Below, piece by piece: positions 30,833-51,366 of a stretch of DNA of 64,000 bases. The position numbers and the translations under genes are program-made. Numbering within the stretch: position 1 is the first letter of the stretch; every line of letters begins with the position of its first letter. This DNA comes from Escherichia coli (GTDB lineage: Bacteria > Pseudomonadota > Gammaproteobacteria > Enterobacterales > Enterobacteriaceae), in assembly GCF_016903815.1 (NCBI RefSeq), contig NZ_CP069973.1. One strand, written 5' to 3'. The notes under the pieces are model-generated. The model saw nothing but the letters and a program-made list of their open reading frames with translations. It did not search any database and was not told where the DNA came from.

Positions 30833-30895
30833 CATGCAGGTTATAAAACCAGCACGTCCTTGCAATAGTTTCAGTATGGTATTAGCATTGATGCG

Positions 30896-31129: not shown

Positions 31130-31211
31130 TTAGATAAGAGCTCTCTCACTCCAGCCAGAGCCACCAACTCAGGGCTGGAAAGTAAAAAACCGACGCAAAG
31201 TCGGTTTTTTT
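31130..31211 (+). ncRNA. agrB: AgrB antisense small RNA (repressor of dinQ), approximate ends
   Basis: TTGCAA-17-TAGTAT promoter at 31094..31122. Body is near-identical to the 30694..30727 segment lying antisense within the dinQ transcript region. Terminator at 31185..31211. Confidence 0.65.
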
Positions 31212-31363
31212 ACGTCCTGATTCAGACCTCCTTTCAAATGAATAGCCAACTCAAAATTCACACCTATTACCTTCCTCTGCACATACACATTCGTTAAACC
31301 ATATATGTTTTTGACTTATCCGCTTCGAAGAGAGACACTACCTGCAACAATCAGGAGCGCAAT

Positions 31364-31717
31364 ATGTCATTTCTGTTACCCATCCAACTGTTCAAAATTC
31401 TTGCTGATGAAACCCGTCTGGGCATCGTTTTACTGCTCAGCGAGCTGGGAGAATTATGCGTCTGCGATCTCTGTACTGCCCTCGATCAGTCGCAGCCCAA
31501 GATATCCCGCCACCTGGCATTGCTGCGTGAAAGTGGGCTATTGCTGGATCGCAAGCAGGGTAAGTGGGTTCATTACCGCTTATCACCGCATATTCCATCA
31601 TGGGCCGCGAAAATTATTGAGCAGGCCTGGCGATGCGAACAGGAAAAGGTTCAGGTGATTGTCCGCAACCTGGCTCGACAAAATTGTTCCGAAGACAGTA
31701 AGAACATTTGTAGTTAA
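31364..31717 (+). CDS. arsR: Arsenical resistance operon repressor ArsR
   Basis: 117 aa; metal-binding ELCVCDLC motif in the HTH region. Confidence 0.95.
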   Translation: MSFLLPIQLFKILADETRLGIVLLLSELGELCVCDLCTALDQSQPKISRHLALLRESGLLLDRKQGKWVHYRLSPHIPSWAAKIIEQAWRCEQEKVQVIVRNLARQNCSEDSKNICS

Positions 31718-31771
31718 AAAATTTATCTAAACACATATGGATTTGCACATGTGTTTTTTCCGGGAGGCATT

Positions 31772-33061: not shown

Positions 33062-33073
33062 TGAGATATTGAT

Positions 33074-33499
33074 ATGAGCAACATTACCATTTATCACAAC
33101 CCGGCCTGCGGTACGTCGCGTAATACGCTGGAGATGATCCGCAACAGCGGTACAGAACCGACCATCGTCTATTATCTGGAAACCCCACCGACGCGTGATG
33201 AACTGGTCAAACTCATTGCCGATATGGGGATTTCCGTACGCGCGCTGCTGCGTAAAAACGTCGAGCCGTATGAGGAACTGGGCCTTGCAGAAGATAAATT
33301 TACTGACGATCGGTTAATCGACTTTATGCTTCAGCACCCGATTCTGATTAATCGCCCGATTGTGGTGACGCCGCTGGGAACTCGCCTGTGTCGCCCTTCA
33401 GAAGTGGTGCTGGAAATTCTGCCAGATGCGCAACAAGGCGCGTTCACCAAGGAAGATGGCGAGAAAGTGGTTGATGAAGCGGGTAAACGCTTGAAATAA
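33074..33499 (+). CDS. arsC: Arsenate reductase (glutaredoxin-coupled) ArsC
   Basis: 141 aa; MSNITIYHNPACGTSRNTL contains the catalytic Cys. Confidence 0.95.
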   Translation: MSNITIYHNPACGTSRNTLEMIRNSGTEPTIVYYLETPPTRDELVKLIADMGISVRALLRKNVEPYEELGLAEDKFTDDRLIDFMLQHPILINRPIVVTPLGTRLCRPSEVVLEILPDAQQGAFTKEDGEKVVDEAGKRLK

Positions 33500-33529
33500 A
33501 GCGGCGATATCCACTGCCCATAGTTGGTA

Positions 33530-33640
33530 AAGTGCGCTTTGTTTATGTCGGATGCGACGCTAACGCGTCTTATCCGACCTACAAAACCGTGCATGGCATG
33601 AAATCTGTAGCGCGTAGCGCATCAGGCAATTTTGCTATTT
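33530..33640. repeat. REP (repetitive extragenic palindromic) elements
   Basis: gtcggatgcgacgctaacgcgtcttatccgacctaca and gcgtagcgcatcaggca resemble enterobacterial REP units. Confidence 0.55.
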
Positions 33641-33918
33641 ACGCAGCACTCCTCGCGTAAGAATTCAATTATCGCTTCCAGCATTGCGTATTGCGAAACA
33701 CACATCAGCGTTCGACTCTCACGGTTTTGTTTGACCAGCCCTACCGATACCAGTGCTGAAATATGGTGACTGAGTGTAGAGCCGGGTATCCCAAGCTGCT
33801 TTTGCAACTCACCGACCGGCAAACCTTGTTCCCCCGCTTTGACCAGGTGTTTGAATATGAACAAACGGGTCGGGTGACCTAGCTCTTTCAGCGCTTTAGC
33901 AACTTCTTCCAACTGCAT
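33622..33918 (-). CDS. Second ArsR/SmtB-family metalloregulator with C-terminal Cys cluster
   Basis: 98 aa; winged-HTH segment GELQKQLGIPGSTLSHHISALVSVGLV; cysteines at ...LMCVSQ... and ...REECC near the C-terminus. Confidence 0.8.
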   Translation of the reverse strand: MQLEEVAKALKELGHPTRLFIFKHLVKAGEQGLPVGELQKQLGIPGSTLSHHISALVSVGLVKQNRESRTLMCVSQYAMLEAIIEFLREECCVNSKIA

Positions 33919-34025
33919 ATGACACCCCCTTTGTCTGGTTGATATTTCGATAATACCAGAAATATCTTGATCTGAATTTCATTTCGATTATTCTGGAAAT
34001 ATAGATTTATTCAATGAGGTTACGT

Positions 34026-35027
34026 ATGAGTAGTTGGCTTGCGATGCTGCAAGATGCCGCAGAGATGTTTGTGTTTCTCGCCGTTGAGCTTTCTTTGCTG
34101 TTTATAGTGATTAGTGCCGGTGTGAGCCTGATAAGACAAAAGGTGCCAGACCATAAAATCCAGCAGATGATGGGGGCCAGAAAAGGGAGAGGTTATCTCC
34201 TGGCTGCTCTGTTGGGAGCCGTTACCCCGTTCTGTAGTTGCTCGACAATACCCATGTTACGTGGATTGTTGTCAGCGAAAGCCGGGTTTGGTCCAACCCT
34301 TACTTTTTTATTTGTTTCACCGCTACTTAATCCCATTATCGTCGGACTAATGTGGGTGACCTTTGGCTGGAAAGTGACCTTGTTGTACGCGATTATCGCC
34401 GCCGGCGTCTCCGTACTTGCCAGTATTATCCTGGATTCTCTGGGATTTGAACGTCATATTATTGCCAGTAAAAGCTCATCAGCAAATTGTTGTGCTCCAG
34501 CCAAAACTTCGCCGGGGACGACATATACGCCAATAAAAGTGAGTTGCTGTAGTCCAGCGGCTAAAGCCATTGAGAAACCTGTAGTAAACTGTTGCAGTAC
34601 CAAAGCTGTGGTAAGTATTAATCCCATAAAACTAGCCACCAAAGATGCGTTGCAACAGTTTAAAGATGTACTGCCATATCTTTTGTTAGGGGTATTAATA
34701 GGCTCTTTTATTTATGGCTTTATTCCCTCAGAGTGGATTGCCGCTCATGCAGGGGCAGATAATCCCTTCGCCATCCCATTGAGCGCCGTTGTCGGTATTC
34801 CGCTATATATCCGGGCAGAGGCGGTTATCCCTCTGGCATCTGTTCTGATGACAAAAGGAATGGCTCTGGGAGCATTAATGGCATTAATCATCGGCAGTGC
34901 CGGCGCAAGCCTGACGGAAGTGATATTACTTAAATCAATGTTCAGAATACCGATGATAGTTGCATTCCTGACGGTTATATTAGGTATGGCTATCTTGATG
35001 GGCTATTTGACTCAAATGCTATTTTAA
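34026..35027 (+). CDS. arsP: ArsP-like (DUF318-type) permease, candidate organoarsenical efflux permease
   Basis: GAGG RBS 6 nt before ATG 34026. Contains the TPFCSCS motif (AVTPFCSCSTIPM) and a Cys-rich central loop; divergent from the ArsR-family gene. Confidence 0.65.
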   Translation: MSSWLAMLQDAAEMFVFLAVELSLLFIVISAGVSLIRQKVPDHKIQQMMGARKGRGYLLAALLGAVTPFCSCSTIPMLRGLLSAKAGFGPTLTFLFVSPLLNPIIVGLMWVTFGWKVTLLYAIIAAGVSVLASIILDSLGFERHIIASKSSSANCCAPAKTSPGTTYTPIKVSCCSPAAKAIEKPVVNCCSTKAVVSINPIKLATKDALQQFKDVLPYLLLGVLIGSFIYGFIPSEWIAAHAGADNPFAIPLSAVVGIPLYIRAEAVIPLASVLMTKGMALGALMALIIGSAGASLTEVILLKSMFRIPMIVAFLTVILGMAILMGYLTQMLF

Positions 35028-35607
35028 ATAGATGCCAGCAGTAAACTATAAGGAGCATTGTGAGTGCCTTATCCTTCTGAGTAGAAAATCATAGATAGGA
35101 TAATCTTTAAAAATCACAAATAACTTAACTAATGCTTTGAGAATGATGACGGATCCGTCAGTAAGTCATCAATCGACAATCACCACGCAATCATGCTTCT
35201 CTGACATTTTATCGGAGAAGCAATGTCTCTTTGTTTCAGTGCTATCCCCCCTTTTAAAGGGCAGATTTCAGTCGCCAATACAACACATTTTTAAATACAC
35301 TTTAACCTGGTTCATTATTACACATCTAAAACATCACAAAAATATCACTTCACACACTATCGGTGAACATCATAACTTTTTAAAATGAGCGCTTTTTGAT
35401 AGTTGTTAACGTTTTCCTTTACGATACTATCACTGCCCTTTTTTTATACACAAATATTACCGGGTGGAGATAAAAGGGAAATCAAAGGTAATTATATCAG
35501 GAAGAGATAACGCATTACATTTATTGTGTGTAGAAGAAAATCCATTCCTGTTCTAATTATCCAATTTAAACATCTTAGCATAAAACAAATGATGAATAAG
35601 GAATTTT

Positions 35608-36831
35608 ATGTCAATTGACTTTACCCCAGGTATAATAAATACATATCACGGCGATATTTATAACTGCACAACAAATACCGATAATGCTAAAACGCCAGAC
35701 ACACCGAAGTGGCCTTGCGATAATTTGGAAGAACAACAACCCATTAATTCCACATTCTCTGGAGAAGGATATACCTCTGATCAATATGATTTAGCGCAAC
35801 ACCAACTTCAACAAATTAATGCGTGCCACACGAACACTACATATACAAATGCAGAATACTCAAAAGTTGTGACTCAACTTGTAAGTCTTATTACTAACAT
35901 TGAAACGATAAGTTCGACACCACTTACGCAACAGACACAATCAATACTTAATCAGATTAATAACATTAGATACGAAAAAAACAAAAGTGCTGAATGTCGA
36001 ATCATTGTTGTCGCTAATCCTAAACCCGACAAGGCAATCATAACTAAAATTAGCGTAGAAGAGGGAATACCAGTAAGATTCAGTGTCCAAACCATGTTTT
36101 CAGATACTAATTTTATTGCTGAACAACGAGCTGACTTACCGACTAATATAAAAGATATTCAAAACCTGTATCAAAAAATGACGAAGTTATATATTGAGCA
36201 CAGTGAAAATAAAAACAGGATGAAAGTCTTTGCCGGAACCAACTTTATTGATTTCAATATGACAGGACAGAACCTGTCCGGGTTCGTTCTAACCTTGTCA
36301 AGGTTTTATTTCGAAGATCTACTTAATATAAATTTCACTGACGCAAATTTAGGTGACACTATTTTTTCACATAAAGAACACCCTGCCCCAAAATTATATA
36401 AAGACGAACAATATCTTGACAAACAAATCGAAGGTTTATTTTCAACATTATTAACCATTAATGACAACTTTTTACGAGCAAAAGCGGAAATTGCTTCGAC
36501 AATAATTAAATTCTTAGAGGCCAGGATAACCAATATTTCATACAATGACATATTAAAATATCAGCAAGAATTCAAAAAACAATGTTATAAGCAAGTTAAA
36601 GCCTTTACGACACTCTCCCGATACAATAAAATTCAAACATGGGCAGAAATGTCTGAATATCAATTCGAAGTATTTCAACGCGAGACGCTTAACCCAAAAA
36701 AAATGTCATGCGCACCTTATTTAAAGAGATCGCTACCTGATGAAAAAACTATAAATTATGGGGTGGAAATAGAAACACCAACTGGCAAAAGAATTCGCTT
36801 ATCAAATCATTACCAGAATATAATCCCATAA
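35608..36831 (+). CDS. yhiS: YhiS, uncharacterised protein (intact 407-aa form)
   Basis: AT-rich ORF in the arsC-to-slp position. Confidence 0.7.
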
Positions 36832-37075
36832 TATGAACATTAGCACTTTATAATCATTGAATAAAAATAGATTTTATGTACCTTTAAAAAAAGGCTATTT
36901 TATGGGGCGATGGATACTCATGTCACGCCCCAAAATTAACAGAATTAAACTAAACAGAAGGGATATAAACATCAGACAGGTTTACGTTACTATCAGGCAT
37001 ATCGCCTCAGAATCAGATGAAAACTATAAAGAAATATCTATTATGGTTTTAATATTTGTTGATAAGGATAGTAAC

Positions 37076-37642
37076 ATGAACATGACAAAAGGTGCACTCA
37101 TCCTCAGCCTTTCATTTTTGCTTGCCGCATGTAGTTCAATTCCGCAAAATATCAAAGGCAATAACCAACCTGATATTCAAAAAAGTTTTGTTGCTGTTCA
37201 TAACCAGCCGGGGTTATATGTTGGTCAACAAGCGCGCTTTGGTGGGAAGGTTATCAACGTTATCAATGGCAAAACGGATACGTTGTTAGAAATCGCTGTA
37301 TTACCGTTGGATAGCTATGCGAAGCCTGATATTGAAGCCAACTATCAGGGCCGACTGCTCGCCAGACAAAGCGGCTTCCTTGATCCAGTGAACTATCGTA
37401 ATCACTTTGTTACCATCCTCGGTACCATTCAGGGTGAACAACCTGGCTTTATCAATAAAGTCCCGTATAACTTCCTCGAAGTGAATATGCAGGGCATCCA
37501 GGTGTGGCATTTGAGAGAAGTGGTTAATACCACCTATAACCTGTGGGATTACGGCTATGGTGCATTCTGGCCGGAACCGGGCTGGGGTGCGCCTTACTAC
37601 ACCAACGCGGTGAGTCAGGTAACACCTGAGCTGGTCAAATAA
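37076..37642 (+). CDS. slp: Starvation-inducible outer membrane lipoprotein Slp
   Basis: 188 aa from internal Met (MNMTKGALILSLSFLLAACSS, lipobox LAAC). The track ORF begins 73 codons upstream, which is unlikely. Confidence 0.9.
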   Translation: MNMTKGALILSLSFLLAACSSIPQNIKGNNQPDIQKSFVAVHNQPGLYVGQQARFGGKVINVINGKTDTLLEIAVLPLDSYAKPDIEANYQGRLLARQSGFLDPVNYRNHFVTILGTIQGEQPGFINKVPYNFLEVNMQGIQVWHLREVVNTTYNLWDYGYGAFWPEPGWGAPYYTNAVSQVTPELVK

Positions 37643-37794
37643 CACCACCGAAAGATGCAGATGCTTTCTCAGCATCTGCATCATGCATTACATCAAATTA
37701 ATACACAGCCAGCTAACTATTATTATAAGCCCTGTCCTGTTAATTACCTTTGGCAAACTGATTATAAAGTTAATGTCCGCACCAGGAGTCGGTT

Positions 37795-38325
37795 ATGTTT
37801 CTTATAATTACCAGGGATACGATGTTCTTCACTGCGATGAAAAACATTCTGAGTAAAGGTAATGTCGTTCATATACAGAACGAAGAAGAGATCGACGTAA
37901 TGTTGCATCAGCATGCCTTCGTCATTATTGATACATTAATGAATAATGTATTTCATTCTAATTTGCTCACTCAGATTGAACGATTAAAACCTGTCCATGT
38001 GATTATTTTCTCTCCCTTTAATATTAAACGCTGCCTGGGGAAAGTACCGGTGACCTTTGTTCCGCGAACTATCACCATCATCGACTTTGTCGCACTCATC
38101 AATGGCAGTTACTGCTCTGTGCCTGAAGCGGATGTGTCCCTTTCGCGCAAGCAGCATCAGGTTCTGAGCTGCATTGCGAATCAAATGACAACGGAAGATA
38201 TTCTGGAGAAACTGAAAATATCGCTAAAAACGTTCTACTGCCATAAACACAATATCATGATGATCCTCAATCTTAAGCGGATCAATGAGTTGGTACGCCA
38301 TCAGCATATTGATTATCTGGTGTGA
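37795..38325 (+). CDS. dctR: LuxR-family transcriptional regulator DctR (YhiF)
   Basis: 176-aa ORF with C-terminal LuxR-type HTH. Confidence 0.9.
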   Translation: MFLIITRDTMFFTAMKNILSKGNVVHIQNEEEIDVMLHQHAFVIIDTLMNNVFHSNLLTQIERLKPVHVIIFSPFNIKRCLGKVPVTFVPRTITIIDFVALINGSYCSVPEADVSLSRKQHQVLSCIANQMTTEDILEKLKISLKTFYCHKHNIMMILNLKRINELVRHQHIDYLV

Positions 38326-38385
38326 TCGATTGATTAATATAAAGAGGCCCAGCAATAAATAGCCAGACCTCCCTTTAATTATACG

Positions 38386-39414
38386 TTATGCAGTAACGCC
38401 TTCCGGTATCAGCGAAGCAATTTGCTTACGCCATTGCGCTTGCTCCTGTTCGCCTTCTGTACGTTGACCATAAAGTTGCGCTATCTGCGTACCATCATGG
38501 GCAAACAATTCCAGACTGGTCACATAACCGTCACTAGCAGGTTTACGGGTTACCCAGGTTTCAGCAATGCTCTCTTCTAATAGATGAAGAGTAAACGTCG
38601 GGTTAAAAATATTCAGCCAACCTTTCATTGGCACCACTTTTTCTACCACGCCAGTGAAAATCTGTACGCAGCCACGGTTGCCAACAAACACCATGATTTC
38701 ATTGCCATCCTGCTGTGCAGATTCAAGAATTTGCGCCAACGCACTGTTGGATACTTTGCAGGCCAAATCGTCTGCCACCAGATTGAACGCCTGTTGGCGC
38801 GTCAGGTTGTGGCGCTTGAGCAACGTAAAAAACTGATGAACGTCGGTCATCGCCCGCCACTCTTGCTCGACCACACTGGCATCGGCTCGCATTTGAACGA
38901 CTGGCGCATCAACGGCTTTTAACTCAAGCGGCGTATTCTCATCAGTGATAAACCGTGCCAGAAGCTCACTCCATGCCGCCATATCGGTATTGTCGGTGGC
39001 ATAAACTTTTAGTAATGCATCGCCCTGATGATCAAAGAACTGAATACTCTGGCGTTCGCCACGAGTCGTATTTTCTTTAATGTGAAAAACACTGGCCCAT
39101 TGATTGAGAAACAGACGCAAATCCAGCGCGCGTGGATTGAGGATCAATCCGGCATGTCCGTTCAAATGCTGGTTTGTGAACGCACCAACTTGCTCATGGA
39201 CTGCATATTCATTACGGCAAATACATTTGGTCTCGCCAACACTTTCGAGCGCCGCCAGAATTTCACGGATATCGCCGCGCATCCGCCACGCATCGTGCGT
39301 GACGCGTGCAAATGCCAGTTCTGCTTCGCTAATATTCATTAAACCTGCGATGTCACGCGCGTACTTTCCGGGATTTTGTTCTTTTAACTCAAGCCAGCGT
39401 GTGTAGTGGTTCAT
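38386..39414 (-). CDS. chuS: Haem utilisation / haem-degrading protein ChuS (HemS/ShuS family)
   Basis: 342-aa ORF directly downstream of chuA on the same strand. Confidence 0.9.
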   Translation of the reverse strand: MNHYTRWLELKEQNPGKYARDIAGLMNISEAELAFARVTHDAWRMRGDIREILAALESVGETKCICRNEYAVHEQVGAFTNQHLNGHAGLILNPRALDLRLFLNQWASVFHIKENTTRGERQSIQFFDHQGDALLKVYATDNTDMAAWSELLARFITDENTPLELKAVDAPVVQMRADASVVEQEWRAMTDVHQFFTLLKRHNLTRQQAFNLVADDLACKVSNSALAQILESAQQDGNEIMVFVGNRGCVQIFTGVVEKVVPMKGWLNIFNPTFTLHLLEESIAETWVTRKPASDGYVTSLELFAHDGTQIAQLYGQRTEGEQEQAQWRKQIASLIPEGVTA

Positions 39415-39462
39415 TGTCTCTCTTCCTTCCAGATAAATGCCCCGAAATATCGGGGCAGATGA

Positions 39463-41445
39463 TTACCATTGATAACTCACGAAAATTTTTCCATTACGAC
39501 CATCCTGTGGGATGCCTTGTGGCGACCAGTACTCTTTGTCGAAAGCGTTACCCAACACCAAAGTAGTGGTCATACCTTTGAGCGCCTGTTGTCCTTGATA
39601 ACTGACGTAGAAATCATTCACGCCATAGCCTGGTTGTTTGCTGTAACTGCTGCTGATATGTGTTGAGCGATCGGCAAACGTACCAACCCACCCAACAGAG
39701 AAGCCACTGTGAGCGATCGGAATATTCAGGGTACTGGTAACGGTATCCGGGTTAATGCTGGAGATATATTCCCCAGTATCGGTGTCTTTGCCGCGGGTAC
39801 GGTTATAGGCCACATCAAGGCTAAACAGATCAGTGGTATATTTCGTCATTACATCCCAGCCCCAGATTTTGGCGTTCGGGACGTTATACGACATAGTTGT
39901 CGCCGCCGCGAAATCGACGGTCGTGGAGATGTAATCCTTCGCTTTGGTATCAAAGTAGCTGGCTTTAAATTCCAGGGTATCATTGGACAACATCAGGTCA
40001 TCAAAACGCAGCCCAAAACCGTACTCCTGAGTTTCGTTAGTTTCCGGACGTAAGTTCGGGTTTGGCACCCAATAGTTGGTATAGAAGCGACCAATCGAGA
40101 AGTGCTTAGAATCGTTATACATTTCGCCCATCGTCGGGGCGCGGAATGCCTGGGCATATGAGCCAAATAACATCAGCCAGTTAGTCGGATTGATAGTCAT
40201 CCCCGCACGAGATGACCATTTGTCGGCATCAACATCTTTGTAACCGTCACTGCTACCGCGATAACTGTCATAGCGGGTTCCGCCAAGCAGGGTAATCGGC
40301 AGATCGCGTAAGGTGATCTCATCCTGTAGCCAGCCGGAGCTAAAATCGATTTTTGCTTGCGGGAAGCCCGTCGTCGCGCCGCCCGGATGTTGTTCCTGAC
40401 GATAATACTCACCGCCATATGTCAGTAAGTGAGAAGCGAAACTGTCGGCAAAGAGAGTGGAACGGTTCTCCAGCCTGGCTCCTTTTGTTATCTGTTCACG
40501 ATACTCGCCGGAACTCCCCGTGTTTTGCGCATTAATACGGACTTCCGACCAGTAAATTTTTGCATCTGCATTTAACCAGTCGTTGCCCTGCGGGGCGAGT
40601 TTATAAGAAAGCTGCGCATCGCGTTGAATTGTTGAACGATCAACCATCGGGTTGCTGCTATCAGAAGCCTCAACAGTCTGCGGATTTTTTGGTTCACGCG
40701 CGTCGTTGTTGTAGTAACGCACTAAACCGCTCAGAGACTGGGCTGAATCAATTTGCCAGGTCCCTTTCGCCAGCATGTTATTAATGGACTCGTCATTCGG
40801 CGCGGTTTCACCATTGCTCTGGCGTAAATCACCCCGACCGCGACTGGACCAGGCCACAATACCATCCAGATTTTCAGTTCGCCCAAACGCGCTCGCGCCT
40901 AATCCCAGGCTATGGTCCCCCGTGCCGCCAGTACCAAAGACACGAAAACCACTGCTTTGTCCTTCCTGCAATAAATCTTTTGCATCGACCGTATCGTAGG
41001 AGATCACTCCACCCAGCGCACCACTGCCATACAGTAATGCTGAAGGTCCGCGAACAATCTCAACACGCTTGATCAGCGCCGGATCGAGAAAAGTGCCATT
41101 CAGGTGTCCGGTATCCGTTCCCTGGCGAACACCATCGACAAGAACCAGCACGCCGCGATGATCATAGCCACGCATATTTACATCCTGACCGTTGGTTCGT
41201 CCGGTACCATCAAGAGTAATTCCAGGAACATGACGCAGCAAATCAGTGGCTGAAGTAGCCGTTTGATTTTCAGGAGCGGAAGTGTCGATGACGCTGACCA
41301 TCATAGGCGCTTCGAAGGAACTACGGGCATTCCCCGTTGCCGTAACGGTCATGGTTTCAGTAGCAAAAGCAAACGTTGGCAAGGTGGCAGAAACAGCCAA
41401 AGCCAACAAACTCAAACGCAACGAGGTAAATTGCGGACGTGACAT
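39463..41445 (-). CDS. chuA: TonB-dependent outer membrane haem/haemoglobin receptor ChuA
   Basis: 660 aa; signal peptide, TonB-box-like ETMTVTA, plug and beta-barrel, C-terminal ...VSYQW. Confidence 0.95.
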   Translation of the reverse strand: MSRPQFTSLRLSLLALAVSATLPTFAFATETMTVTATGNARSSFEAPMMVSVIDTSAPENQTATSATDLLRHVPGITLDGTGRTNGQDVNMRGYDHRGVLVLVDGVRQGTDTGHLNGTFLDPALIKRVEIVRGPSALLYGSGALGGVISYDTVDAKDLLQEGQSSGFRVFGTGGTGDHSLGLGASAFGRTENLDGIVAWSSRGRGDLRQSNGETAPNDESINNMLAKGTWQIDSAQSLSGLVRYYNNDAREPKNPQTVEASDSSNPMVDRSTIQRDAQLSYKLAPQGNDWLNADAKIYWSEVRINAQNTGSSGEYREQITKGARLENRSTLFADSFASHLLTYGGEYYRQEQHPGGATTGFPQAKIDFSSGWLQDEITLRDLPITLLGGTRYDSYRGSSDGYKDVDADKWSSRAGMTINPTNWLMLFGSYAQAFRAPTMGEMYNDSKHFSIGRFYTNYWVPNPNLRPETNETQEYGFGLRFDDLMLSNDTLEFKASYFDTKAKDYISTTVDFAAATTMSYNVPNAKIWGWDVMTKYTTDLFSLDVAYNRTRGKDTDTGEYISSINPDTVTSTLNIPIAHSGFSVGWVGTFADRSTHISSSYSKQPGYGVNDFYVSYQGQQALKGMTTTLVLGNAFDKEYWSPQGIPQDGRNGKIFVSYQW

Positions 41446-41450
41446 AGCGA

Positions 41451-41466
41451 TTCTCCATGAGGAAAA
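41451..41466 (-). promoter_or_regulatory. Candidate FourU-type RNA thermometer hairpin masking the chuA Shine-Dalgarno
   Basis: Minus-strand RNA reads UUUUCC-UCAU-GGAGAA immediately 5' of the chuA AUG; UUUUCC can pair with GGAGAA. Confidence 0.4.
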
Positions 41467-41734
41467 TAAAAAATGCTGGCTGCCTGGGTTAATACCGGGG
41501 TGGCTGGCGAAAAATAAATTTATTTAAAATTCAGAGCGATAATATTCGCCGGGTGAGTTTACAGGCGTTTATATCCCATGAAATTGCCTGGTATCTCGGC
41601 AAATACGCAAAAGCACGCCCTCTTTGTCAGGCAAAACGATATGCCCCATCAGGAGTGAAGAGCGCTGTGCGTTATCCCTTGCAAATGCTATGGTTTTGTT
41701 ATCCATATGGTCGTGTTTTGTTAAGCGCGAACGT

Positions 41735-41753
41735 GATAATGAGAATTATTATC
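41735..41753. promoter_or_regulatory. Fur-box-like site in the chuA upstream region
   Basis: GATAATGAGAATTATTATC resembles the Fur consensus GATAATGATAATCATTATC. Confidence 0.5.
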
Positions 41754-42083
41754 GATCAATTTTTTATGATCAAGCTTTTTTTTAACCGCCATTAACACAA
41801 TAAACAGGGGGTTATGAAACTTATCCTGCGCCCTGTAAACCACTTTGTTTTTATGGTTATTCCCCCATGACCTCATTACTAAACTTTGTCGTTAGCAGTG
41901 ATAATTTTCTCTTCGCTTTGCTCTGCAAGCCTCGATATCTGTGGGTTCTCAGCTTTTTCCCGCGCTGAAATTTAGTCGGTAACAAGAACGTTAGCTGACG
42001 AAGCATCTTGATAAAAATCAAAAATAAATACGCTTGTAACGCCTTGCGTATTGAATCGACGGTTGTATTTCATATATAACTCA

Positions 42084-42105
42084 AATGATAATAATGATCA
42101 TTCTC
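42084..42105. promoter_or_regulatory. Fur-box-like site at the chuT operon promoter
   Basis: AATGATAATAATGATCATTCTC, shortly upstream of the chuT start. Confidence 0.55.
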
Positions 42106-42128
42106 AATTTGATAAGAGTTCTCATATT

Positions 42129-43043
42129 ATGCCAAGGATCATCACCAGGCCGTTTCTTTTTTCCCCACTAACGTTATGTATTTCAGCCGTGGCCTCTGCC
42201 GCGAAGACCGCGGTAAAACGAAAAAAAATGTTTACGGCAGTACTGGCTCTTAGCTGGGCTTTTAGCGTAACGGCTGCCGAACGTATCGTGGTCGCAGGAG
42301 GATCGCTGACGGAGCTAATCTACGCGATGGGCGCTGGCGAACGCGTGGTTGGTGTCGATGAAACGACATCTTATCCACCAGAAACCGCCAAACTGCCGCA
42401 TATTGGCTACTGGAAACAACTCAACAGCGAAGGCATTTTGTCACTTCGCCCGGATAGCGTAATTACCTGGCAGGATGCCGGGCCACAAATTGTGCTCGAC
42501 CAACTACGAGCGCAGAAAGTCAACGTCGTTACCCTGCCGCGTGTGCCTGCCACCCTTGAGCAGATGTACGCCAACATTCGCCAACTGGCAAAAACGCTAC
42601 AGGTTCCTGAACAAGGCGAGGCGCTGGTGACACAGATCAACCAACGCCTGGAGCGAGTACAGCAAAACGTGGCGGCCAAAAAAGCCCCGGTTAAAGCCAT
42701 GTTTATTCTCTCCGCAGGCGGAAGTGCGCCACAGGTTGCCGGTAAAGGCAGCGTCGCGGACGCCATTCTTTCGCTTGCCGGAGCAGAAAACGTCGCAACC
42801 CACCAGCAGTACAAAAGCTACAGTGCAGAATCACTGATTGCGGCCAATCCAGAAGTGATTGTCGTAACCTCACAAATGGTCGATGGCGATATTAATCGGC
42901 TACGTTCTATTGCCGGAATTACCCACACTGCCGCATGGAAAAACCAGCGCATTATCACCGTTGATCAAAACCTGATTCTGGGAATGGGTCCGCGTATTGC
43001 TGATGTCGTTGAGTCTTTACACCAGCAGCTTTGGCCGCAATAA
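42129..43043 (+). CDS. chuT: Periplasmic haem-binding protein ChuT (ABC transporter substrate-binding)
   Basis: Start taken at MPRIITRP (42129) just after the Fur-box-like site. An internal Met at 42228 begins a signal-like MFTAVLALSWAFSVTAA; the track start at 42051 is unlikely. Confidence 0.8.
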   Translation: MPRIITRPFLFSPLTLCISAVASAAKTAVKRKKMFTAVLALSWAFSVTAAERIVVAGGSLTELIYAMGAGERVVGVDETTSYPPETAKLPHIGYWKQLNSEGILSLRPDSVITWQDAGPQIVLDQLRAQKVNVVTLPRVPATLEQMYANIRQLAKTLQVPEQGEALVTQINQRLERVQQNVAAKKAPVKAMFILSAGGSAPQVAGKGSVADAILSLAGAENVATHQQYKSYSAESLIAANPEVIVVTSQMVDGDINRLRSIAGITHTAAWKNQRIITVDQNLILGMGPRIADVVESLHQQLWPQ

Positions 43044-43062
43044 ATGGATTTAAATCAGACGA

Positions 43063-44400
43063 ATGAACGCAAATAACACCCTGGATCTCACGCCACATTT
43101 TGCTTTAGACGGTGATCAGCCATTTAAAGACAGGCGCGCCATGATGCCGTTTCGTGGAGCCATTCCGGTTGCCAAAGAGCAACTGGCACAGACCTGGCAA
43201 GAGATGATCAATCAAACGGTATCACCACGTAAGCGACTGGTTTATCTACACATTCCTTTTTGTGCGACACACTGCACGTTTTGTGGTTTTTATCAGAACC
43301 GTTTTAATGAAGATGCGTGTGCTCATTATACCGACGCCCTGATTCGTGAAATAGAAATGGAAGCGGACAGCGTATTGCATCATTCTGCCCCCATCCACGC
43401 GGTCTATTTCGGTGGCGGTACGCCTTCCGCGCTTTCGGCACACGATTTGGCCAGAATCATCACCACATTACGAGAAAAGCTGCCACTGGCCCCTGATTGT
43501 GAAATCACTATCGAAGGCCGGGTACTGAATTTTGACGCTGAGCGAATCGATGCTTGCCTTGATGCAGGAGCAAACCGCTTCTCAATTGGTATTCAGTCGT
43601 TTAACAGCAAAATCCGTAAGAAAATGGCCCGCACCTCGGATGGCCCAACCGCCATTGCGTTTATGGAAAGCCTGGTCAAACGCGACCGTGCTGCGGTGGT
43701 CTGTGATCTGCTGTTTGGCCTGCCGGGTCAGGATGCGCAAACCTGGGGAGAAGATCTGGCTATTGCTCGCGATATCGGTCTCGACGGCGTCGATCTCTAT
43801 GCGCTCAATGTCCTGCCCAATACACCGCTGGGCAAAGCCGTGGAAAATGGGCGCACTACCGTGCCCTCTCCGGCAGAACGTCGCGATCTTTATCTGCAAG
43901 GGTGTGATTTTATGGACGATGACGGTTGGCGCTGCATCAGTAACAGCCACTGGGGCCGTACCACACGCGAACGCAATCTCTATAACCTGCTGATAAAACA
44001 AGGTGCCGATTGTCTGGCCTTTGGTTCCGGAGCCGGCGGTTCGATTAATGGTTACTCCTGGATGAACGAACGCAATCTTCAGACCTGGCATGAATCCGTC
44101 GCGGCAGGCAAAAAACCGCTGATGATGATCATGCGTAACGCCGAACGTGATGCGCAATGGCGTCATACCTTGCAGTCAGGTGTTGAAACAGCGCGTGTAC
44201 CGCTGGATGAACTTACGCCACATGCCGAAAAACTCGCGCCGTTACTGGCTCAATGGCACCAAAAAGGCTTAAGCCGCGATGCGTCAACTTGCCTGCGGCT
44301 GACTAATGAAGGTCGTTTCTGGGCAAGCAATATTTTGCAGTCTCTTAATGAACTAATTCAGGTACTTAATGCGCCAGCGATTGTGCGTGAAAAACCATAA
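43063..44400 (+). CDS. chuW: Radical SAM haem-degrading enzyme ChuW (HemN-like)
   Basis: 445 aa; radical SAM Cys motif HIPFCATHCTFCGF. Confidence 0.9.
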   Translation: MNANNTLDLTPHFALDGDQPFKDRRAMMPFRGAIPVAKEQLAQTWQEMINQTVSPRKRLVYLHIPFCATHCTFCGFYQNRFNEDACAHYTDALIREIEMEADSVLHHSAPIHAVYFGGGTPSALSAHDLARIITTLREKLPLAPDCEITIEGRVLNFDAERIDACLDAGANRFSIGIQSFNSKIRKKMARTSDGPTAIAFMESLVKRDRAAVVCDLLFGLPGQDAQTWGEDLAIARDIGLDGVDLYALNVLPNTPLGKAVENGRTTVPSPAERRDLYLQGCDFMDDDGWRCISNSHWGRTTRERNLYNLLIKQGADCLAFGSGAGGSINGYSWMNERNLQTWHESVAAGKKPLMMIMRNAERDAQWRHTLQSGVETARVPLDELTPHAEKLAPLLAQWHQKGLSRDASTCLRLTNEGRFWASNILQSLNELIQVLNAPAIVREKP

Positions 44401-44412
44401 CAGGAGTGATTT

Positions 44413-44907
44413 ATGAGCCATGTCTCGTTACAAGAATTTTTGAAAACGGAGCCGGACGGTACGCTGGAGGTGGTAGCCGAACAATACAACACCACACTGC
44501 TGGAAGTAGTGAAAAACCTGCCCTCCTCAACCATAGTGTCAGGCGATAAATTCGATACTGTCTGGGATACCGTCTGCGAATGGGGCAACGTCACCACGTT
44601 AGTACATACTGCCGATGTTATCCTCGAATTTAGCGGCGAACTGCCTTCGGGTTTCCACCGCCACGGCTATTTCAACCTACGCGGAAAGCACGGCATGTCC
44701 GGGCATATCAAAGCAGAAAACTGCACGCATATTGCCTTGATCGAACGTAAATTTATGGGCATGGACACCGCCTCTATTCTCTTTTTCAATAAGAAAGGCA
44801 GCGCCATGCTGAAAATCTTCCTCGGCAGGGATGACCATCGTCAGCTCCTGAGCGAACAAGTCAGCGCCTTCCATGCTCTGGCAGCATCGTTAAAGGAACA
44901 CGCCTGA
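44413..44907 (+). CDS. chuX: Haem-binding protein ChuX
   Basis: 164-aa ORF in the chuTWXYUV order; stop overlaps the chuY start. Confidence 0.85.
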   Translation: MSHVSLQEFLKTEPDGTLEVVAEQYNTTLLEVVKNLPSSTIVSGDKFDTVWDTVCEWGNVTTLVHTADVILEFSGELPSGFHRHGYFNLRGKHGMSGHIKAENCTHIALIERKFMGMDTASILFFNKKGSAMLKIFLGRDDHRQLLSEQVSAFHALAASLKEHA

Positions 44908-45530
44908 TGACACCGTGGCTACTCTTTGGCGCAGGCGGAAAAGGTGTGGGTGCCAGAACGCTTGAACTGGCGCTGGCAGAGCAACGTCCGGTCGTTGCTG
45001 TCGTTCGTCATGCCGATGCCGCCACGAAACTGGCGCAACAAGGCGTACAGTTTTTTACAGGCGACGCCTGTGATGCCAGCGTAGTCGCGGATGCTTGCCG
45101 CGCAGCTGGCCCGGATGCGCTTATCATCTCAACAATGGGCGGAGCTCAGGATTATCTGGCGCACAGAACAGTGATTGATGAGGCCGAAAAGGCCGGCATT
45201 AGTCGCATGATTCTGGTGACCTCTTTGGGATGCGGCGATAGCTGGCCGTTTTTATCGGAGCGAGCAAAGGCTGCGTTTGGTCAGGCGGTACGGGAAAAAA
45301 CGCTGGCGGAAAGCTGGTTGCAAACCAGCCAGCTTGATTACGCCATTCTCCGCCCTGGCGGTCTGCTTGATGGGGCGGCAACGGGCAAAGCACAACGGAT
45401 ACAAAATCAGGAGTGTCATGGTTTTGTTAACCGTGCCGATGTCGCCGCACATATCCATGAACTGGCAAATGCGCCAGCACTTAACCAGCAGGTCTACAGT
45501 CTGATTGAACCGGACCTGAAACCGGCGTGA
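44907..45530 (+). CDS. chuY: NAD(P)-dependent reductase ChuY
   Basis: 207 aa; Rossmann-type N-terminus LLFGAGGKGVGART. Confidence 0.85.
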   Translation: MTPWLLFGAGGKGVGARTLELALAEQRPVVAVVRHADAATKLAQQGVQFFTGDACDASVVADACRAAGPDALIISTMGGAQDYLAHRTVIDEAEKAGISRMILVTSLGCGDSWPFLSERAKAAFGQAVREKTLAESWLQTSQLDYAILRPGGLLDGAATGKAQRIQNQECHGFVNRADVAAHIHELANAPALNQQVYSLIEPDLKPA

Positions 45531-45578
45531 TCCCCCGGCGCGGAATCTCCGCGCCGTAATGTCGTAACGGAGTTTTGC

Positions 45579-46571
45579 GTGCTCAAGGATTCACTCTCTT
45601 CCGCCAGGGTCTTTATGGGGCTATCACTATTATTGCTCGCTCTGGTGCTGTTCGGTGCCAGTCAGGGAGCGTTAAAGATCAGTTTTGATGCTCTTTTTGA
45701 TGAGGAATACCGCGATATCTGGCTCAATATTCGTCTACCACGGGTTTTGCTGGCGGTGCTGGTAGGTGCAGCGTTGGCAACCGCAGGGGTAATTATGCAG
45801 GGGCTTTTTCGCAACCCAATGGCTGACCCAGGATTACTTGGCGTCAGTAGCGGTTCTGCATTAATGGTTGGCGTTGCTATTGTGCTACCGTTCTCCTTCC
45901 CAGTGGTGCTGGTGCTCTATGAGCAAATGGTGTTTGCCATTGCCGGAAGTTTAGTGGTCTGCACCATCATTTTTCTCATCACGCAGCGCCATCGCGATGG
46001 CAGCATGATGCAATTATTACTCGCCGGTATCGCCATCAATGCCCTGTGCGGCGCAGCGATCGGCATCCTGAGCTATATCGGCGATGAGCAGCAGCTACGA
46101 CAACTCACATTGTGGATGATGGGCAATCTTGGACAGGCGCAATGGCCGACGTTATTGGTTGCCAGTTCATTCATCCTACCGGCCATTATCGCAACAACTT
46201 GTCTCGCCGGAACGCTGAATTTACTGCAGCTCGGTGATGAAGAAGCCCACTACCTCGGCGTGAACGTTAAGCGTAAACGCCAGCAATTACTGTTAGTGAG
46301 CTCACTGCTCGTTGGTGCCGCCGTATCGGTAAGCGGCATTATCGGCTTTATTGGCCTGGTGATCCCGCATCTGATTCGTATGACTACCGGGGCAAATCAC
46401 CGCTGGCTAATCCCTTGCTCCGCCCTCGCCGGAGCCTGTTTATTGCTGATGGCAGACACGCTTGCCCGCACGCTGGTACAGCCAGCAGAAATGCCCGTGG
46501 GATTATTAACCAGCCTGCTTGGTGGCCCTTATTTTATGTGGTTGATTCTGCGCAACCGGAGGATCACATGA
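45579..46571 (+). CDS. chuU: Haem ABC transporter permease ChuU (FecCD family)
   Basis: 330-aa polytopic ORF, GTG start; stop overlaps the chuV ATG. Confidence 0.9.
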
Positions 46572-47338
46572 TCAGCGCCCAGAATCTGGTTTATAGCCTT
46601 CAGGGGCGGCGTCTGACTGATAATGTCTCGCTGACTTTTCCCGGTGGGGAAATCGTTGCCATTCTCGGCCCTAATGGTGCGGGAAAATCTACGCTGCTTC
46701 GCCAGTTAACCGGCTATCTTCAACCTGATAGCGGCGAATGTCGGTTGTTTAATAAGCCATTAAATGAATGGTCGATTACTGAACTGGCGAAACACCGGGC
46801 CGTGATGCGTCAAAATAGCCACATGGCGTTTCCATTCAGCGTACAAGAAGTTATCCAGATGGGGCGGCATCCGCATCGCACTGGTAATCAGGATAATGAA
46901 ACAGCACAAATAATGGCGTTATGTGACTGTCAGGCGTTAGCAAACCGCGACTATCGGCAATTATCCGGTGGTGAACAACAGCGCGTGCAATTAGCGCGCC
47001 TGCTGGTGCAACTCTGGGAACCTACTCCCTCACCGAAATGGTTATTTCTTGATGAACCAACTTCGGCGCTGGATATTCACCATCAGCAGCACTTGTTTCG
47101 TTTATTACGCCAGCTAGTTCACGAACGGCAGTTCAATGTTTGCTGCGTATTGCACGATCTAAATCTTGCCGCGCGTTATGCAGACCGTGTTGTATTAATG
47201 CAAAAAGGAAAGGTTATCGCAAATGGTAAACCACAGGACGTATTGACACAGCAGGCGCTGACCATGCTTTACGGCGCGGATATTACCGTACTTAAAGATC
47301 CTGCCAGCCATTCCCCCCTGATCGTCCTCGATCATTAA
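46568..47338 (+). CDS. chuV: Haem ABC transporter ATPase ChuV
   Basis: Start at [12 protein letters not shown]; Walker [10 protein letters not shown] and ABC signature LSGGEQQR. The track start at 46415 lies inside chuU and is rejected. Confidence 0.9.
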
Positions 47339-47389
47339 AACCAACAGGAGTACCGCTCTGGTACTCCTGTGAATAAATAACTATAAAGA

Positions 47390-48037
47390 TTAGCTAATTG
47401 AAACGCCTTTCACCCCTGCCATACCTTTTAATAATCGCAACAGGTCTTCTATCGACGTTGTGGCATGAAGCTGGATATCAATGGCGACCACTTCATGATC
47501 TTCATTTTCCTGCAACGAAACTAAATCAGTTTTTATTTTTTGCTGCTTAAACCAGTCGAGCATTGATACCGTATTACCGTTCACTAATGTCAGCTGTAAA
47601 TGGTAATTTTTGTTCATCAGGCGGAAGGTTAATTGATGGAAGACTTCCAGCACCAGCAAGGTCATCACTGAACCATAAATGCCCAGTTCGTACATACCAC
47701 TGCCAATAACCATACCTATAGCGGCGGTCACCCAGATATCCGCTGCCGTCGTCAGACCTACAATATTTTGGTTACGAACGAGAATGTTACCTGCGCCGAT
47801 AAACCCGACGCCCGTCACCACCTGAGCAGCAATACGGCTGGGGTCCAGTCCGACGTGATCTAAAGACAGCACGTCAGCAAAACCATATTTCGAAACAATC
47901 ATAAACAGGGCGCTTCCCATGCCAATTAATACATGTGTGCGTAACCCTGCTCCTTTGCCGCGCATTTGCCTTTCCATGCCAATAGCGCCACAGGCAATTG
48001 CTGCGAGTATAAGACGTATAATAAATTCTGCTGTCAT
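47390..48037 (-). CDS. yhiD: MgtC-family inner membrane protein YhiD
   Basis: 215 aa from ATG 48037 (MTAEFIIRLILAAIACGAIGMER). Confidence 0.85.
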   Translation of the reverse strand: MTAEFIIRLILAAIACGAIGMERQMRGKGAGLRTHVLIGMGSALFMIVSKYGFADVLSLDHVGLDPSRIAAQVVTGVGFIGAGNILVRNQNIVGLTTAADIWVTAAIGMVIGSGMYELGIYGSVMTLLVLEVFHQLTFRLMNKNYHLQLTLVNGNTVSMLDWFKQQKIKTDLVSLQENEDHEVVAIDIQLHATTSIEDLLRLLKGMAGVKGVSIS

Positions 48038-48100
48038 ATAAAAATGCAAAAAGGAGCAGCAAGATGGCTCAACTTGCTACTCCTTTTTACTTGTACCTCA

Positions 48101-48427
48101 TTAATTCGGCAAGTCATTAGATGCTTGATTTTTGAAGGTATACAAATTTTTCTGCGGGTTTTTCTTGCAGTATTCGATCACTTTAGGAATTTGAGTGAGA
48201 TCGGTTTCATTTAAAGTAACGGTATCGCCACCTTTATATACTGTCTCTTCATGCAGCATCCACCATGCAACCGGTGTCATTGCTTTTGGATTCAGATCAA
48301 TAAATTCCTGGCAGGTCATATCTTTAGCGGATTCATTGGCTGCCAGCGCAGATTGTGCGTTCACCAGTGACAAAGCCGCTACAGCGCCCATAAAAATAAA
48401 CGCTTTACGGAGAGATGAAATATTCAT
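48101..48427 (-). CDS. hdeB: Periplasmic acid-stress chaperone HdeB
   Basis: 108 aa from MNISSLRKAFIFMGAVAALSLVNAQSALA. Confidence 0.9.
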   Translation of the reverse strand: MNISSLRKAFIFMGAVAALSLVNAQSALAANESAKDMTCQEFIDLNPKAMTPVAWWMLHEETVYKGGDTVTLNETDLTQIPKVIEYCKKNPQKNLYTFKNQASNDLPN

Positions 48428-48542
48428 TTTGTAACCCATTCAATATAGAGATTATATATGAACAGGAGGAATAGCTGCTTTTAAAGAAGATATTCCGGCC
48501 TGTTCAATATGCAAGGAAGTACGATGTAACGCATTCCCGGAA

Positions 48543-48875
48543 TTACATATCTTTCTTAATTTTGTCCCATTCGCCTTTAACTTTATCTTTAAAGTTGGCT
48601 TGTTTATCCTGAGTACAAGCCTGAACGATAGCTGGGGTTACGGTTGCAATACCCTGAACATCTAAAACCGCATCTTCTGGTTTATCTTTGTTGTTCAGCG
48701 CTTCAGCAAAACCAACTGCAGTTGGCTGGAAGGATTCGTCCACAGCCAGGAAATCTTCACAGGTCCAGGAGTTGACCGGTTTTTTGTTATCAGCTGCTTT
48801 TTGCGCATCCGCTGCATTGCTCACAACTGGCAGAAGAAGCAGACCACCAAGAATAACGCCTAATACTTTTTTCAT
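48543..48875 (-). CDS. hdeA: Periplasmic acid-stress chaperone HdeA
   Basis: 110 aa MKKVLGVILGGLLLLPVVSNAADAQKAADNKKPVNSWTCEDFL... Confidence 0.95.
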   Translation of the reverse strand: MKKVLGVILGGLLLLPVVSNAADAQKAADNKKPVNSWTCEDFLAVDESFQPTAVGFAEALNNKDKPEDAVLDVQGIATVTPAIVQACTQDKQANFKDKVKGEWDKIKKDM

Positions 48876-49129
48876 CGTAATATCCTCAACTATAAAGTGA
48901 AAGAGCCGTCACGAATCAATTTCGACACTGAGGTTATAACCTGGTTTTCTGTATATGTCATGTTGATGGAAAATATCAAAATCAGATATTTTTATTTCAA
49001 TACAATGAGTTACAGATGCATCAGATACTGTAATTAGGAAATTTTTATTAAATCGACTGCATTCTTAGACGCGTTTTTGGCATAGATTGATAGCAGGGGA
49101 TTTTCTTCTTAATTTTATAGGGTGGTTCT

Positions 49130-49702
49130 ATGTTATATATAGATAAGGCAACAATTTTGAAGTTTGATCTGGAGATGCTGAAAAAGCATCGCAGAGCAAT
49201 CCAGTTTATTGCCGTGTTGCTGTTTATCGTCGGGTTGCTGTGTATCAGTTTCCCGTTCGTCTCTGGCGATATTTTAAGCACGGTAGTGGGTGCATTATTA
49301 ATCTGCTCGGGCGTTGCGCTTATTGTCGGGTTATTCAGCAACCGCAGTCATAATTTCTGGCCGGTATTATCCGGTTTCCTCGTCGCAGTCGCCTATTTAT
49401 TGATCGGCTATTTCTTCATCCGCGCACCGGAGCTGGGCATTTTTGCCATTGCGGCATTTATTGCCGGTTTGTTCTGTGTTGCAGGGGTTATTCGCCTGAT
49501 GAGTTGGTATCGTCAGCGTTCAATGAAAGGCAGCTGGCTACAGCTCGTTATTGGTGTGCTGGATATCGTCATTGCATGGATATTCCTTGGTGCAACGCCG
49601 ATGGTGTCTGTAACTTTGGTTTCCACACTGGTGGGTATTGAACTGATATTTAGCGCCGCCAGCCTGTTCAGCTTCGCCAGTTTGTTCGTTAAGCAGCAAT
49701 AA
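49130..49702 (+). CDS. hdeD: Acid-resistance membrane protein HdeD
   Basis: 190-aa membrane ORF divergent from hdeAB. Confidence 0.9.
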   Translation: MLYIDKATILKFDLEMLKKHRRAIQFIAVLLFIVGLLCISFPFVSGDILSTVVGALLICSGVALIVGLFSNRSHNFWPVLSGFLVAVAYLLIGYFFIRAPELGIFAIAAFIAGLFCVAGVIRLMSWYRQRSMKGSWLQLVIGVLDIVIAWIFLGATPMVSVTLVSTLVGIELIFSAASLFSFASLFVKQQ

Positions 49703-49720
49703 TTATTCTTGTTGTCACCC

Positions 49721-49751
49721 GGATCATAGTCACTTGATGTGACTATGATCC
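49721..49751. terminator. Perfect 13-bp hairpin after hdeD (putative terminator)
   Basis: ggatcatagtcac-ttgat-gtgactatgatcc; no strong U-tract. Confidence 0.35.
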
Positions 49752-50500
49752 GATTAATACTCTCTCCGCTACACAGCGTTGTAGATCAATTGCGCACTAT
49801 CATTGAAATAATTACCTGCTGATGATTATTTCAACCTACTGAATTTCATCTAATTTTTTTCATTCCATGGCAAATTAGCCATTTCAAACATTATCATGGC
49901 TGATATTTTCCGTAGTCAGGTTTAATGTTTTAAAAGTGCTGTGGGAAAGTGAACAAAGAGTTCCGTAAGCGTTGATGCTATGGGCGGTTAAATAAGTAAT
50001 CCGGGTTCATTTTTTTGCAACAGGCGTTGATTACATTGCATAAATATCCGTGTCTCCAGACGCTATATAAAAACCTGAAGACATGAATGCGTTATTTACT
50101 CAGGTAATTTCAATGCGTTAAAAGAAAGCTGGCAATCCAATTGCCAGCTTAAGTCGAAACAAGGAGACTCGATATTTAAATCGGATTACATTTTAACTTT
50201 AGTAATATTCTTCAGAGATCACAAACTGGTTATTGATAACTTATTCTTGGGCAGTAATCCGCAAACGTTAACTTTTTGTTTACCATTTACAAATTGATAA
50301 CAACCAGGAATCTTACTTAGGATCAATATATGGAGTGCGTGATGGATAAATCTGAAGTATTGATTAGTGTTAATAGACGTATTAGTTCACGAAGGGCAAA
50401 GTTCTTATAGGCGTTTACTATATTGAACAACGATTCGGACAAGGATGTAAATAATGAAAAGGATGACATGTTCGAAACGATAACGGCTAAGGAGCAAGTT

Positions 50501-51028: not shown

Positions 51029-51366
51029 TCAGGACATAAGCAACTGAAATTGATGGCTGGCATGACGAGGGATGCAGATGCTGATTTCATTACCCCCGGT
51101 GATTACTAAAGGAGAGGCGAAAACGACTTTATTCCCCTGGTATATGTATCCACCAGTAGAACCCTTCGTTGCCCGAATGCTGGCAGGAACTGTTGGCAGA
51201 ACGGCAACATTTTTTTTGTCGTTGACCTCACCATGTCGATCACTATGCCTGTATCCCACCTTACTGGCTGACAACCCCACTATGCCGCTGGTCTGTAAAT
51301 CCCTCATATCTCTCCTCGCGCGCAATTTAAAGAACCGTTATTTCTCAAGAATTTTCAGGGACTAAA

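Follow-up and report, generated by a model that had tools for sequence, protein, structure and literature searches.

Does the haem-uptake locus that separates dctR from yhiD in part of the Escherichia coli population represent an insertion into a K-12-like chromosome, or is K-12 the strain type that has changed? The question is raised by a 64-kb stretch of E. coli contig NZ_CP069973.1 (hereafter the window), in which eight genes occupy the dctR–yhiD junction. The block is, with near certainty, the complete and intact E. coli chu haem locus (shu in Shigella), situated in the acid fitness island and having the regulation, function and ancestry set out below. The locus itself is already known: it is a textbook system, and chuA is a standard phylotyping marker. 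The corrections made here concern the direction of the event that distinguishes it from K-12, its borders and its start codons. Comparison with other Escherichia most likely places the presence of chu as ancestral and the K-12-like state as secondary, through one loss in which a 38-bp spacer took the place of the locus.

The identity of the eight products is supported by curated family models, solved structures and existing annotation. Matches to the family models reach E-values as low as 1e-176, and four products (ChuA, ChuW, ChuX and ChuV) pass the curated NCBIfam cut-offs. ChuA scores 588.8 bits against TIGR01785 (cut-off 316.85) and contains a FRAP motif at 434 and an NPNL motif at 462; ChuW scores 568.9 bits against the equivalog model TIGR04107 (cut-off 400) and contains CxxxCxxC at residue 67; ChuX scores 208.6 bits against TIGR04108 (cut-off 110) and has a Pfam domain match as well; and ChuV scores 396.8 bits against the haem ATPase model NF010068 (cut-off 261), with Walker A and LSGGE motifs. 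ChuY has no match in NCBIfam and ChuS matches HutX there only below threshold; both were settled with Pfam and the PDB. PF05171 is found in two stretches of ChuS (270.8 bits), corresponding to two HemS/ChuX domains, and the protein matches PDB entries 4CDP and 1U9T (E=2e-227); 9 of its 342 residues differ from those of the crystallised O157 protein, and His193 and Arg100 are kept. ChuY matches PF13460 (NAD_binding_10) and the structures 5GUY and 5FFQ (E about 1e-133). ChuT matches PF01497 (Peripla_BP_2) and periplasmic binding proteins, and ChuU matches permeases of the BtuC/FecCD type.

All eight genes bear Chu names in the RefSeq annotation of a 100%-identical genome, among them 'hematinate-forming heme oxygenase ChuS', 'anaerobilin reductase' for ChuY, and ShuT/ChuT and ShuU/ChuU at 100% identity; other best-matching genomes use the same names. 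Because the E-values extend to 1e-176 and the DNA of the island is 100% identical to that of at least 40 complete genomes, a chance match can be set aside. A first-pass annotation had proposed the same genes, order and orientation, and these sources agree with it; no product fails to fit the Chu families by family model, Pfam or PDB, the outcome that the annotation had named as counting against it.

A map of open reading frames (ORFs) across 35000-50500 shows chuS and chuA as a minus-strand pair, divergent from six plus-strand genes in the order chuT-W-X-Y-U-V, the last of which ends at 47338 (Table 1). The longest ORFs drawn mechanically for chuT and chuV, which begin at TTG codons at 42051 and 46415, are too long; in 100%-identical genomes, RefSeq begins the two genes at ATG 42129 and ATG 46568. 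Both of the start/stop overlaps described earlier are visible. The chuX TGA and chuY ATG are fused as TGATG, with 1 nt in common (position 44907), and the chuU TGA and chuV ATG are fused as ATGA, with 4 nt in common (46568-46571). The divergent gap between chuA and chuT is 683 bp, and the spacer between chuA and chuS is 48 nt.

Table 1. Window positions of the eight chu genes and of the regulatory features found among them.
Feature	Position	Strand	Description
chuS	38386-39414	-	342 amino acids; cytoplasmic haem-degrading/haem oxygenase protein
Hairpin in chuA-chuS spacer	39438-39457	-	GC-rich, followed by T-run; terminator-like scan
chuA	39463-41445	-	660 amino acids; TonB-dependent outer-membrane haem/haemoglobin receptor
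FourU RNA thermometer, chuA 5' untranslated region	41443-41474	-	Rfam RF02597 shuA_thermo
Fur box, chuA side	41735-41753		Predicted; 2 mismatches to 19-nt consensus
Fur box, chuT side	42087-42105		Predicted; 3 mismatches to 19-nt consensus
chuT	42129-43043	+	304 amino acids; periplasmic haem-binding protein
chuW	43063-44400	+	445 amino acids; radical S-adenosylmethionine (SAM) methyltransferase, anaerobic haem ring opening
chuX	44413-44907	+	164 amino acids; cytosolic haem carrier
chuY	44907-45530	+	207 amino acids; NAD(P)H-dependent anaerobilin reductase
chuU	45579-46571	+	330 amino acids, GTG start; haem ATP-binding cassette (ABC) permease
chuV	46568-47338	+	256 amino acids; haem ABC ATPase
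Hairpin between convergent chuV and yhiD	47344-47370		11-bp stem; terminator-like scan

The integrity of the locus bears on whether it could be a decaying remnant that is non-functional in this strain. No point in support of such decay was found. All eight ORFs are full length, have no internal stops or frameshifts and keep their key catalytic and signature residues; the identical sequence is present in at least 40 independent complete genomes; and the promoters, Fur boxes and thermometer described below are conserved. Decay is therefore highly improbable. Judged from its genes, the strain would possess a complete, apparently functional haem-iron system of the kind typical of extraintestinal and enterohaemorrhagic lineages.

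Sequence matches to both Fur boxes and to the chuA thermometer of the published system are also found. A scan of the whole 64 kb with the 19-nt Fur consensus yields only two strong matches, both in the chuA-chuT divergent region; they form an inverted pair, which is the sole meaningful repeat returned by the repeat search. The chuA-side box overlaps a promoter-like site on the minus strand (41773-41745; -35 TTGATC, -10 AATAAT), the position of which would give a leader of about 290 nt. This agrees with the 293-nt chuA 5' untranslated region used experimentally (PMC3660397). The thermometer at the chuA start scores 60.1 bits against RF02597 (gathering score 58, E=1.6e-7), and in the predicted hairpin UUUUCC pairs with the GGAGAA Shine-Dalgarno sequence (-8.2 kcal/mol, z=-1.9); the shuA/chuA FourU thermometer has been demonstrated by experiment (PMC3660397). 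At Shigella shuT, transcription starts 42 nt upstream of the start codon and a Fur site was mapped at +1 to +19, and the shuT leader was shown experimentally to contain an RNA thermometer in S. dysenteriae (PMC5458455). The chuT-side box of the window equals this mapped site in position and mismatch count, occupying +1 to +19 of the transcript, with a 42-nt leader to ATG 42129.

Within the locus, conservation is lowest in the chuA-chuT spacer and in most of the chuA leader (down to 81-90%, in strain S2); the promoters, Fur boxes and thermometer are conserved among the compared E. coli lineages. In S2 itself, the chuA leader at 41446-41738 has 81% identity, while the thermometer and the promoter/Fur box are kept. 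The same leader carries about 122 extra bp (at window 41570-41572) in Escherichia sp. MOD1-EC7003 (L081). The chuA-chuS spacer is 100% conserved across the compared lineages, and the hairpin within it may act as a partial terminator or as a site of processing in the chuAS unit. The hairpin between chuV and yhiD, the T-run of which was scored on the minus strand and thus in the yhiD direction, is likely a terminator.

Other candidate elements were considered and set aside. The RfaH ops element (GGCGGTAGnnTG) has no match in the ~290-nt chuA leader even when 1 mismatch is allowed, and its matches across the window are at chance level only. The 683-bp chuA-chuT region was also inspected for a hidden gene or constrained element; it holds only short unsupported ORFs, and none is proposed. 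Rfam matches to mir-761, ceN63 and Hammerhead_HH9 fall far under their gathering scores and were dismissed.

The likely working of the system can be outlined by carrying the protein functions of the published chu/shu system over to this intact locus. ChuA, powered by TonB, would take up haem from the haemoproteins of the host through the outer membrane; ChuT would ferry it through the periplasm, and ChuU and ChuV would import it across the inner membrane. When oxygen is present, ChuS would degrade the cytoplasmic haem. When it is absent, the radical-SAM enzyme ChuW would open the ring to yield anaerobilin, with ChuX acting as haem carrier and ChuY as reductase, and iron would be released by either route. 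Two divergent promoters would drive chuAS and chuTWXYUV, each repressed by Fur-Fe2+ at its Fur box, and a leader element on each transcript would restrict translation below host temperature. The net effect would be that production is confined to low iron and a temperature of about 37 C.

Comparison with chu-negative genomes locates the borders of the island. The coordinates proposed by the first-pass annotation, 38386-47338, are exactly those of the chuS stop and the chuV stop; the segment that is present or absent as a unit is larger. In a base-by-base comparison with E. coli E24377A it covers 38326-47386 (9,061 bp), starting one base past the dctR stop and ending 3 nt before the yhiD stop, and the K-12 blastn alignment breaks at 38325/47387. 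As had been stated, dctR and yhiD are contiguous in K-12: in MG1655 dctR ends at 3655213 and yhiD runs from 3655255, leaving 41 bp between them, and the arrangement in E24377A is the same. The chu-negative counterpart of the segment in K-12 and E24377A is a 38-bp spacer unrelated to the island. The flanks consist of acid-fitness-island genes, in the order slp, dctR, [chu], yhiD, hdeBA, hdeD, gadE, mdtEF, gadW, gadX, gadA; dctR has a GerE/LuxR domain, and yhiD matches NF007431 with 401.7 bits.

The two junction states are not related by simple insertion. Comparison of the 41-bp spacer with the whole island found no remnant of the chu-negative spacer at either side of the island or inside it. 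Because neither side of the island carries the 38-bp spacer and the island ends bear no relation to it, the difference between the two states is a replacement and not a clean insertion. A deletion scar was also sought, by comparing the spacer with the island and the island ends with each other, and only chance 7-9-mers were obtained. No direct or inverted repeats were found at the island ends, no transfer RNA (tRNA) gene lies within 30000-56000, and the annotation of identical genomes contains no integrase or transposase. The locus thus lacks the integrase or transposase, the tRNA site and the flanking repeats of a classical mobile or pathogenicity island. 'Inserted', the word used for the locus in the first-pass annotation, holds as a description relative to K-12. 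As a statement of direction it is not supported, given the replacement, the missing mobility hallmarks and the occurrence of the same dctR|chuS junction in other Escherichia.

Of 5,426 complete E. coli genomes, 2,238 carry the island. Every copy is chromosomal and none is on a plasmid, and the 2,234 near-full-length copies are all at the dctR-yhiD site, with identities of 96.8-100%. The allele in the window is that of a clonal group comprising about 96 genomes with identities of 99% or above. Among the matches listed, every chu-negative genome has the same 1,781-bp junction span, from which each state, chu or spacer, appears to have arisen once. The status of chuA tracks phylogroups to a degree that allows its use in typing. 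An in-silico Clermont polymerase chain reaction (PCR) for chuA gives a single product at 40923-41210 of the expected 288 bp, which bears out the earlier assignment of the strain to a chu-positive lineage; both the product size and the reverse primer agree with the published assay (PMC7026060). Being chuA-positive, the strain does not belong to phylogroup A, B1 or C.

Over its whole length, the window runs collinear to E. coli FDAARGOS_1279, with identities of 99.998-100% and one exception. In FDAARGOS_1279 an IS200C element (711 bp extra; L001 11340-12101) lies between chuV and yhiD, at window 47339-47389. This element is missing from the window and from at least 39 other genomes of the clone.

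Evidence for the age of the locus comes from a scan of species-representative genomes with a plain ChuS motif, which is also conserved in Yersinia HemS. Three of the 110 loci that it returned are from Escherichia. The chuAS DNA of E. albertii NBRC 107761 (L007) is 89.4% identical to the window, and the chu DNA of a representative labelled E. coli (L019) and of Escherichia sp. MOD1-EC7003 is 91.5% and 94.7% identical, respectively. On sequence grounds this is divergence at the level of separate species. In L019 and L081, dctR is convergent with chuS, and the 60-bp dctR|chuS junction aligns with that of the window, from which it differs by a 4-bp indel and a small number of substitutions; the chu-negative spacer fails to align. 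Divergence among E. coli lineages is similar for island genes (95.4-99.6%) and flank genes (97.2-99.6%). The chu-negative phylogroups A, B1 and C form a derived clade within E. coli. Together, the junction common to L019 and L081, the E. albertii chuAS genes, the similar divergence of island and flanks and the lack of mobility hallmarks argue for an old presence of the locus, with the K-12 state being secondary. For O157:H7 as well as E. albertii, the eight chu genes had been placed within the acid fitness island by a xenoGI study, which also raised the point of ancestral presence (10.1101/188599); the apparent long standing of the haem locus in the acid fitness island of Escherichia is therefore not a new question. 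For annotation it carries a caution, in that 'island relative to K-12' need not mean 'inserted', K-12 being most likely the derived, deleted state.

Recent horizontal acquisition would reverse this order, with the chu block having been inserted into a K-12-like dctR-yhiD spacer in an ancestor of the strain's lineage. Such a history would fit the absence of the island from 59% of complete E. coli genomes and its GC content of 50.3%, compared with 44-47% in the acid-fitness-island flanks. The average of a typical E. coli genome is about 50.7%, to which the island is close. A pool of donors also exists, as ChuA and ChuS are up to 89% and 85% identical in amino acid sequence, their highest values outside Escherichia, in Pseudocitrobacter, Enterobacter, Citrobacter and others. 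However, the K-12 spacer does not flank the island in two halves, and none of its sequence occurs here. Nor is the locus accompanied by an integrase, transposase, tRNA or direct repeat, and no copy is carried by a plasmid or located away from this one site among the 2,234. Two species-level Escherichia lineages have the matching junction at 91.5% and 94.7% identity, E. albertii has chuAS at 89.4%, and island and flanks have diverged to a similar extent. Recent acquisition is thus quite unlikely.

Several points nevertheless weigh against the account preferred here. First, the higher GC content of the island fits an origin separate from that of the rest of the acid fitness island. Second, the junction in common with other species is the left one only; the chuV|yhiD side was not seen there, and the E. 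albertii chu locus examined is too short to reach the junction, in a species reported to be without yhiD. Third, the island may have moved between lineages by homologous recombination through its conserved flanks. Fourth, the 42-nt chuT leader has a weak predicted fold (-5.8 kcal/mol, z=+0.7), no better than that of shuffled sequences, so that a thermometer at this position is adopted from the published Shigella work. Finally, haem use by this strain is presumed from the published system.

If the third point is taken further, chu and the 38-bp spacer may be two old alleles that have recombined repeatedly between lineages via the flanks, with no single gain or loss. Both the original and the later literature term the distribution 'puzzling' and mention gene conversion or horizontal transfer (10.1101/188599), and the junctions of each state are uniform, a pattern that one origin followed by spread would produce. 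The comparable divergence of island and flanks, however, is equally compatible with vertical descent, and the tracking of phylogroups by chuA status argues against frequent exchange. Repeated allelic exchange is accordingly regarded as unlikely, and an ancestral chu locus, lost once in favor of the spacer, is retained as the preferred history.

Comparison with related haem systems addresses how the locus was assembled. The closest relatives are the chu loci of E. coli (the O157:H7 O-island in the acid fitness island, and chuA of uropathogenic E. coli) and the shu locus of S. dysenteriae, which have identical genes, order, orientation and overlaps. They also match in chromosomal site, Fur boxes and the chuA/shuA FourU thermometer, and no substantive difference from the window is found. 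More distant are the hemPRSTUV/hmuRSTUV operons of Yersinia type in Enterobacterales, which have a homologous receptor, a HemS-type protein and an ABC transporter. Across more than 100 species representatives, the counterparts of ChuS are 62-85% and those of ChuA 59-89% identical. In contrast, identity to ChuT is only 31-39% for the T protein of these operons, including those in which A and S exceed 80%, and their U and V proteins are 57-73% and 45-65% identical to ChuU and ChuV. In all non-Escherichia loci of the scan (L006-L115), hemR-S-T-U-V are co-directional, whereas in the window chuAS is divergent and chuWXY lies between chuT and chuU. The window would therefore not qualify as a Yersinia-type hemPRSTUV system: it lacks a single co-directional operon, and its T protein does not resemble an ortholog (31-39%).

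The WXY genes have relatives in other contexts. Some Yersinia (e.g. L078, L084) carry homologues of ChuW, ChuX and ChuY at 52-62% identity, upstream of hemR. With respect to the hutWXZ genes of Vibrio and Plesiomonas, which serve anaerobic haem utilisation, ChuW and ChuX satisfy the HutW and HutX equivalog models. These systems encode HutZ as their third gene; in its place the window has ChuY, an NAD(P)H-binding Rossmann protein (PF13460).

The closeness of chuAS to hemRS of the Citrobacter/Enterobacter type, combined with the lower identity of ChuT, ChuU and ChuV to the proteins of the same operons (T 31-39%, U 57-73%, V 45-65%), suggests that the locus is a mosaic of two modules, chuAS and chuT-WXY-UV, with different ancestries. 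A tentative extension, which has somewhat less than even support, is that the Escherichia chu mosaic was assembled once, in the acid fitness island of an ancestor common to E. albertii and E. coli, with the K-12 state arising by one precise 38-bp replacement. If this is true, the K-12 acid fitness island is a derived form, and haem uptake was part of the ancestral island. One locus of the scan (L076, CACSKA010000003.1), labelled Chryseobacterium sp. 18061, is a 555-kb contig with an enterobacterial-type hemS-T-U in which ChuS is 75% identical; contamination or a wrong label is probable for this assembly.

Several features elsewhere in the window were also observed. In the gadE-mdtE gap, just downstream of gadE, the ES205 small RNA (RF02754) is matched at full length at 51146-51217(+), with 105 bits against a gathering score of 86. 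A yhiS-like ORF at 35608-36831(+) is intact (407 amino acids, no Pfam domain); yhiS is annotated as a two-piece pseudogene in K-12, presumably split there by the insertion sequence IS5, and frameshifted copies are present in E24377A and KE55. Between arsC and yhiS, at ~33622-35027, a permease gene and a divergent ArsR/SmtB regulator constitute another presence/absence polymorphism. This query is matched along its entire length in 2,222 of 5,426 genomes; in many others the match is limited to the yhiS half. Escherichia sp. MOD1-EC7003 is without the whole arsRBC/permease/yhiS block beside slp (window 30651-36716). At the other end, collinearity with FDAARGOS_1279 identifies a Rhs core protein and immunity-gene remnants, IS1 and a truncated ISAs1 transposase at ~1-9000, and the start of the window contains an internal 468-bp repeat (676-1143 and 5527-5993) with 94.7% identity between its copies.

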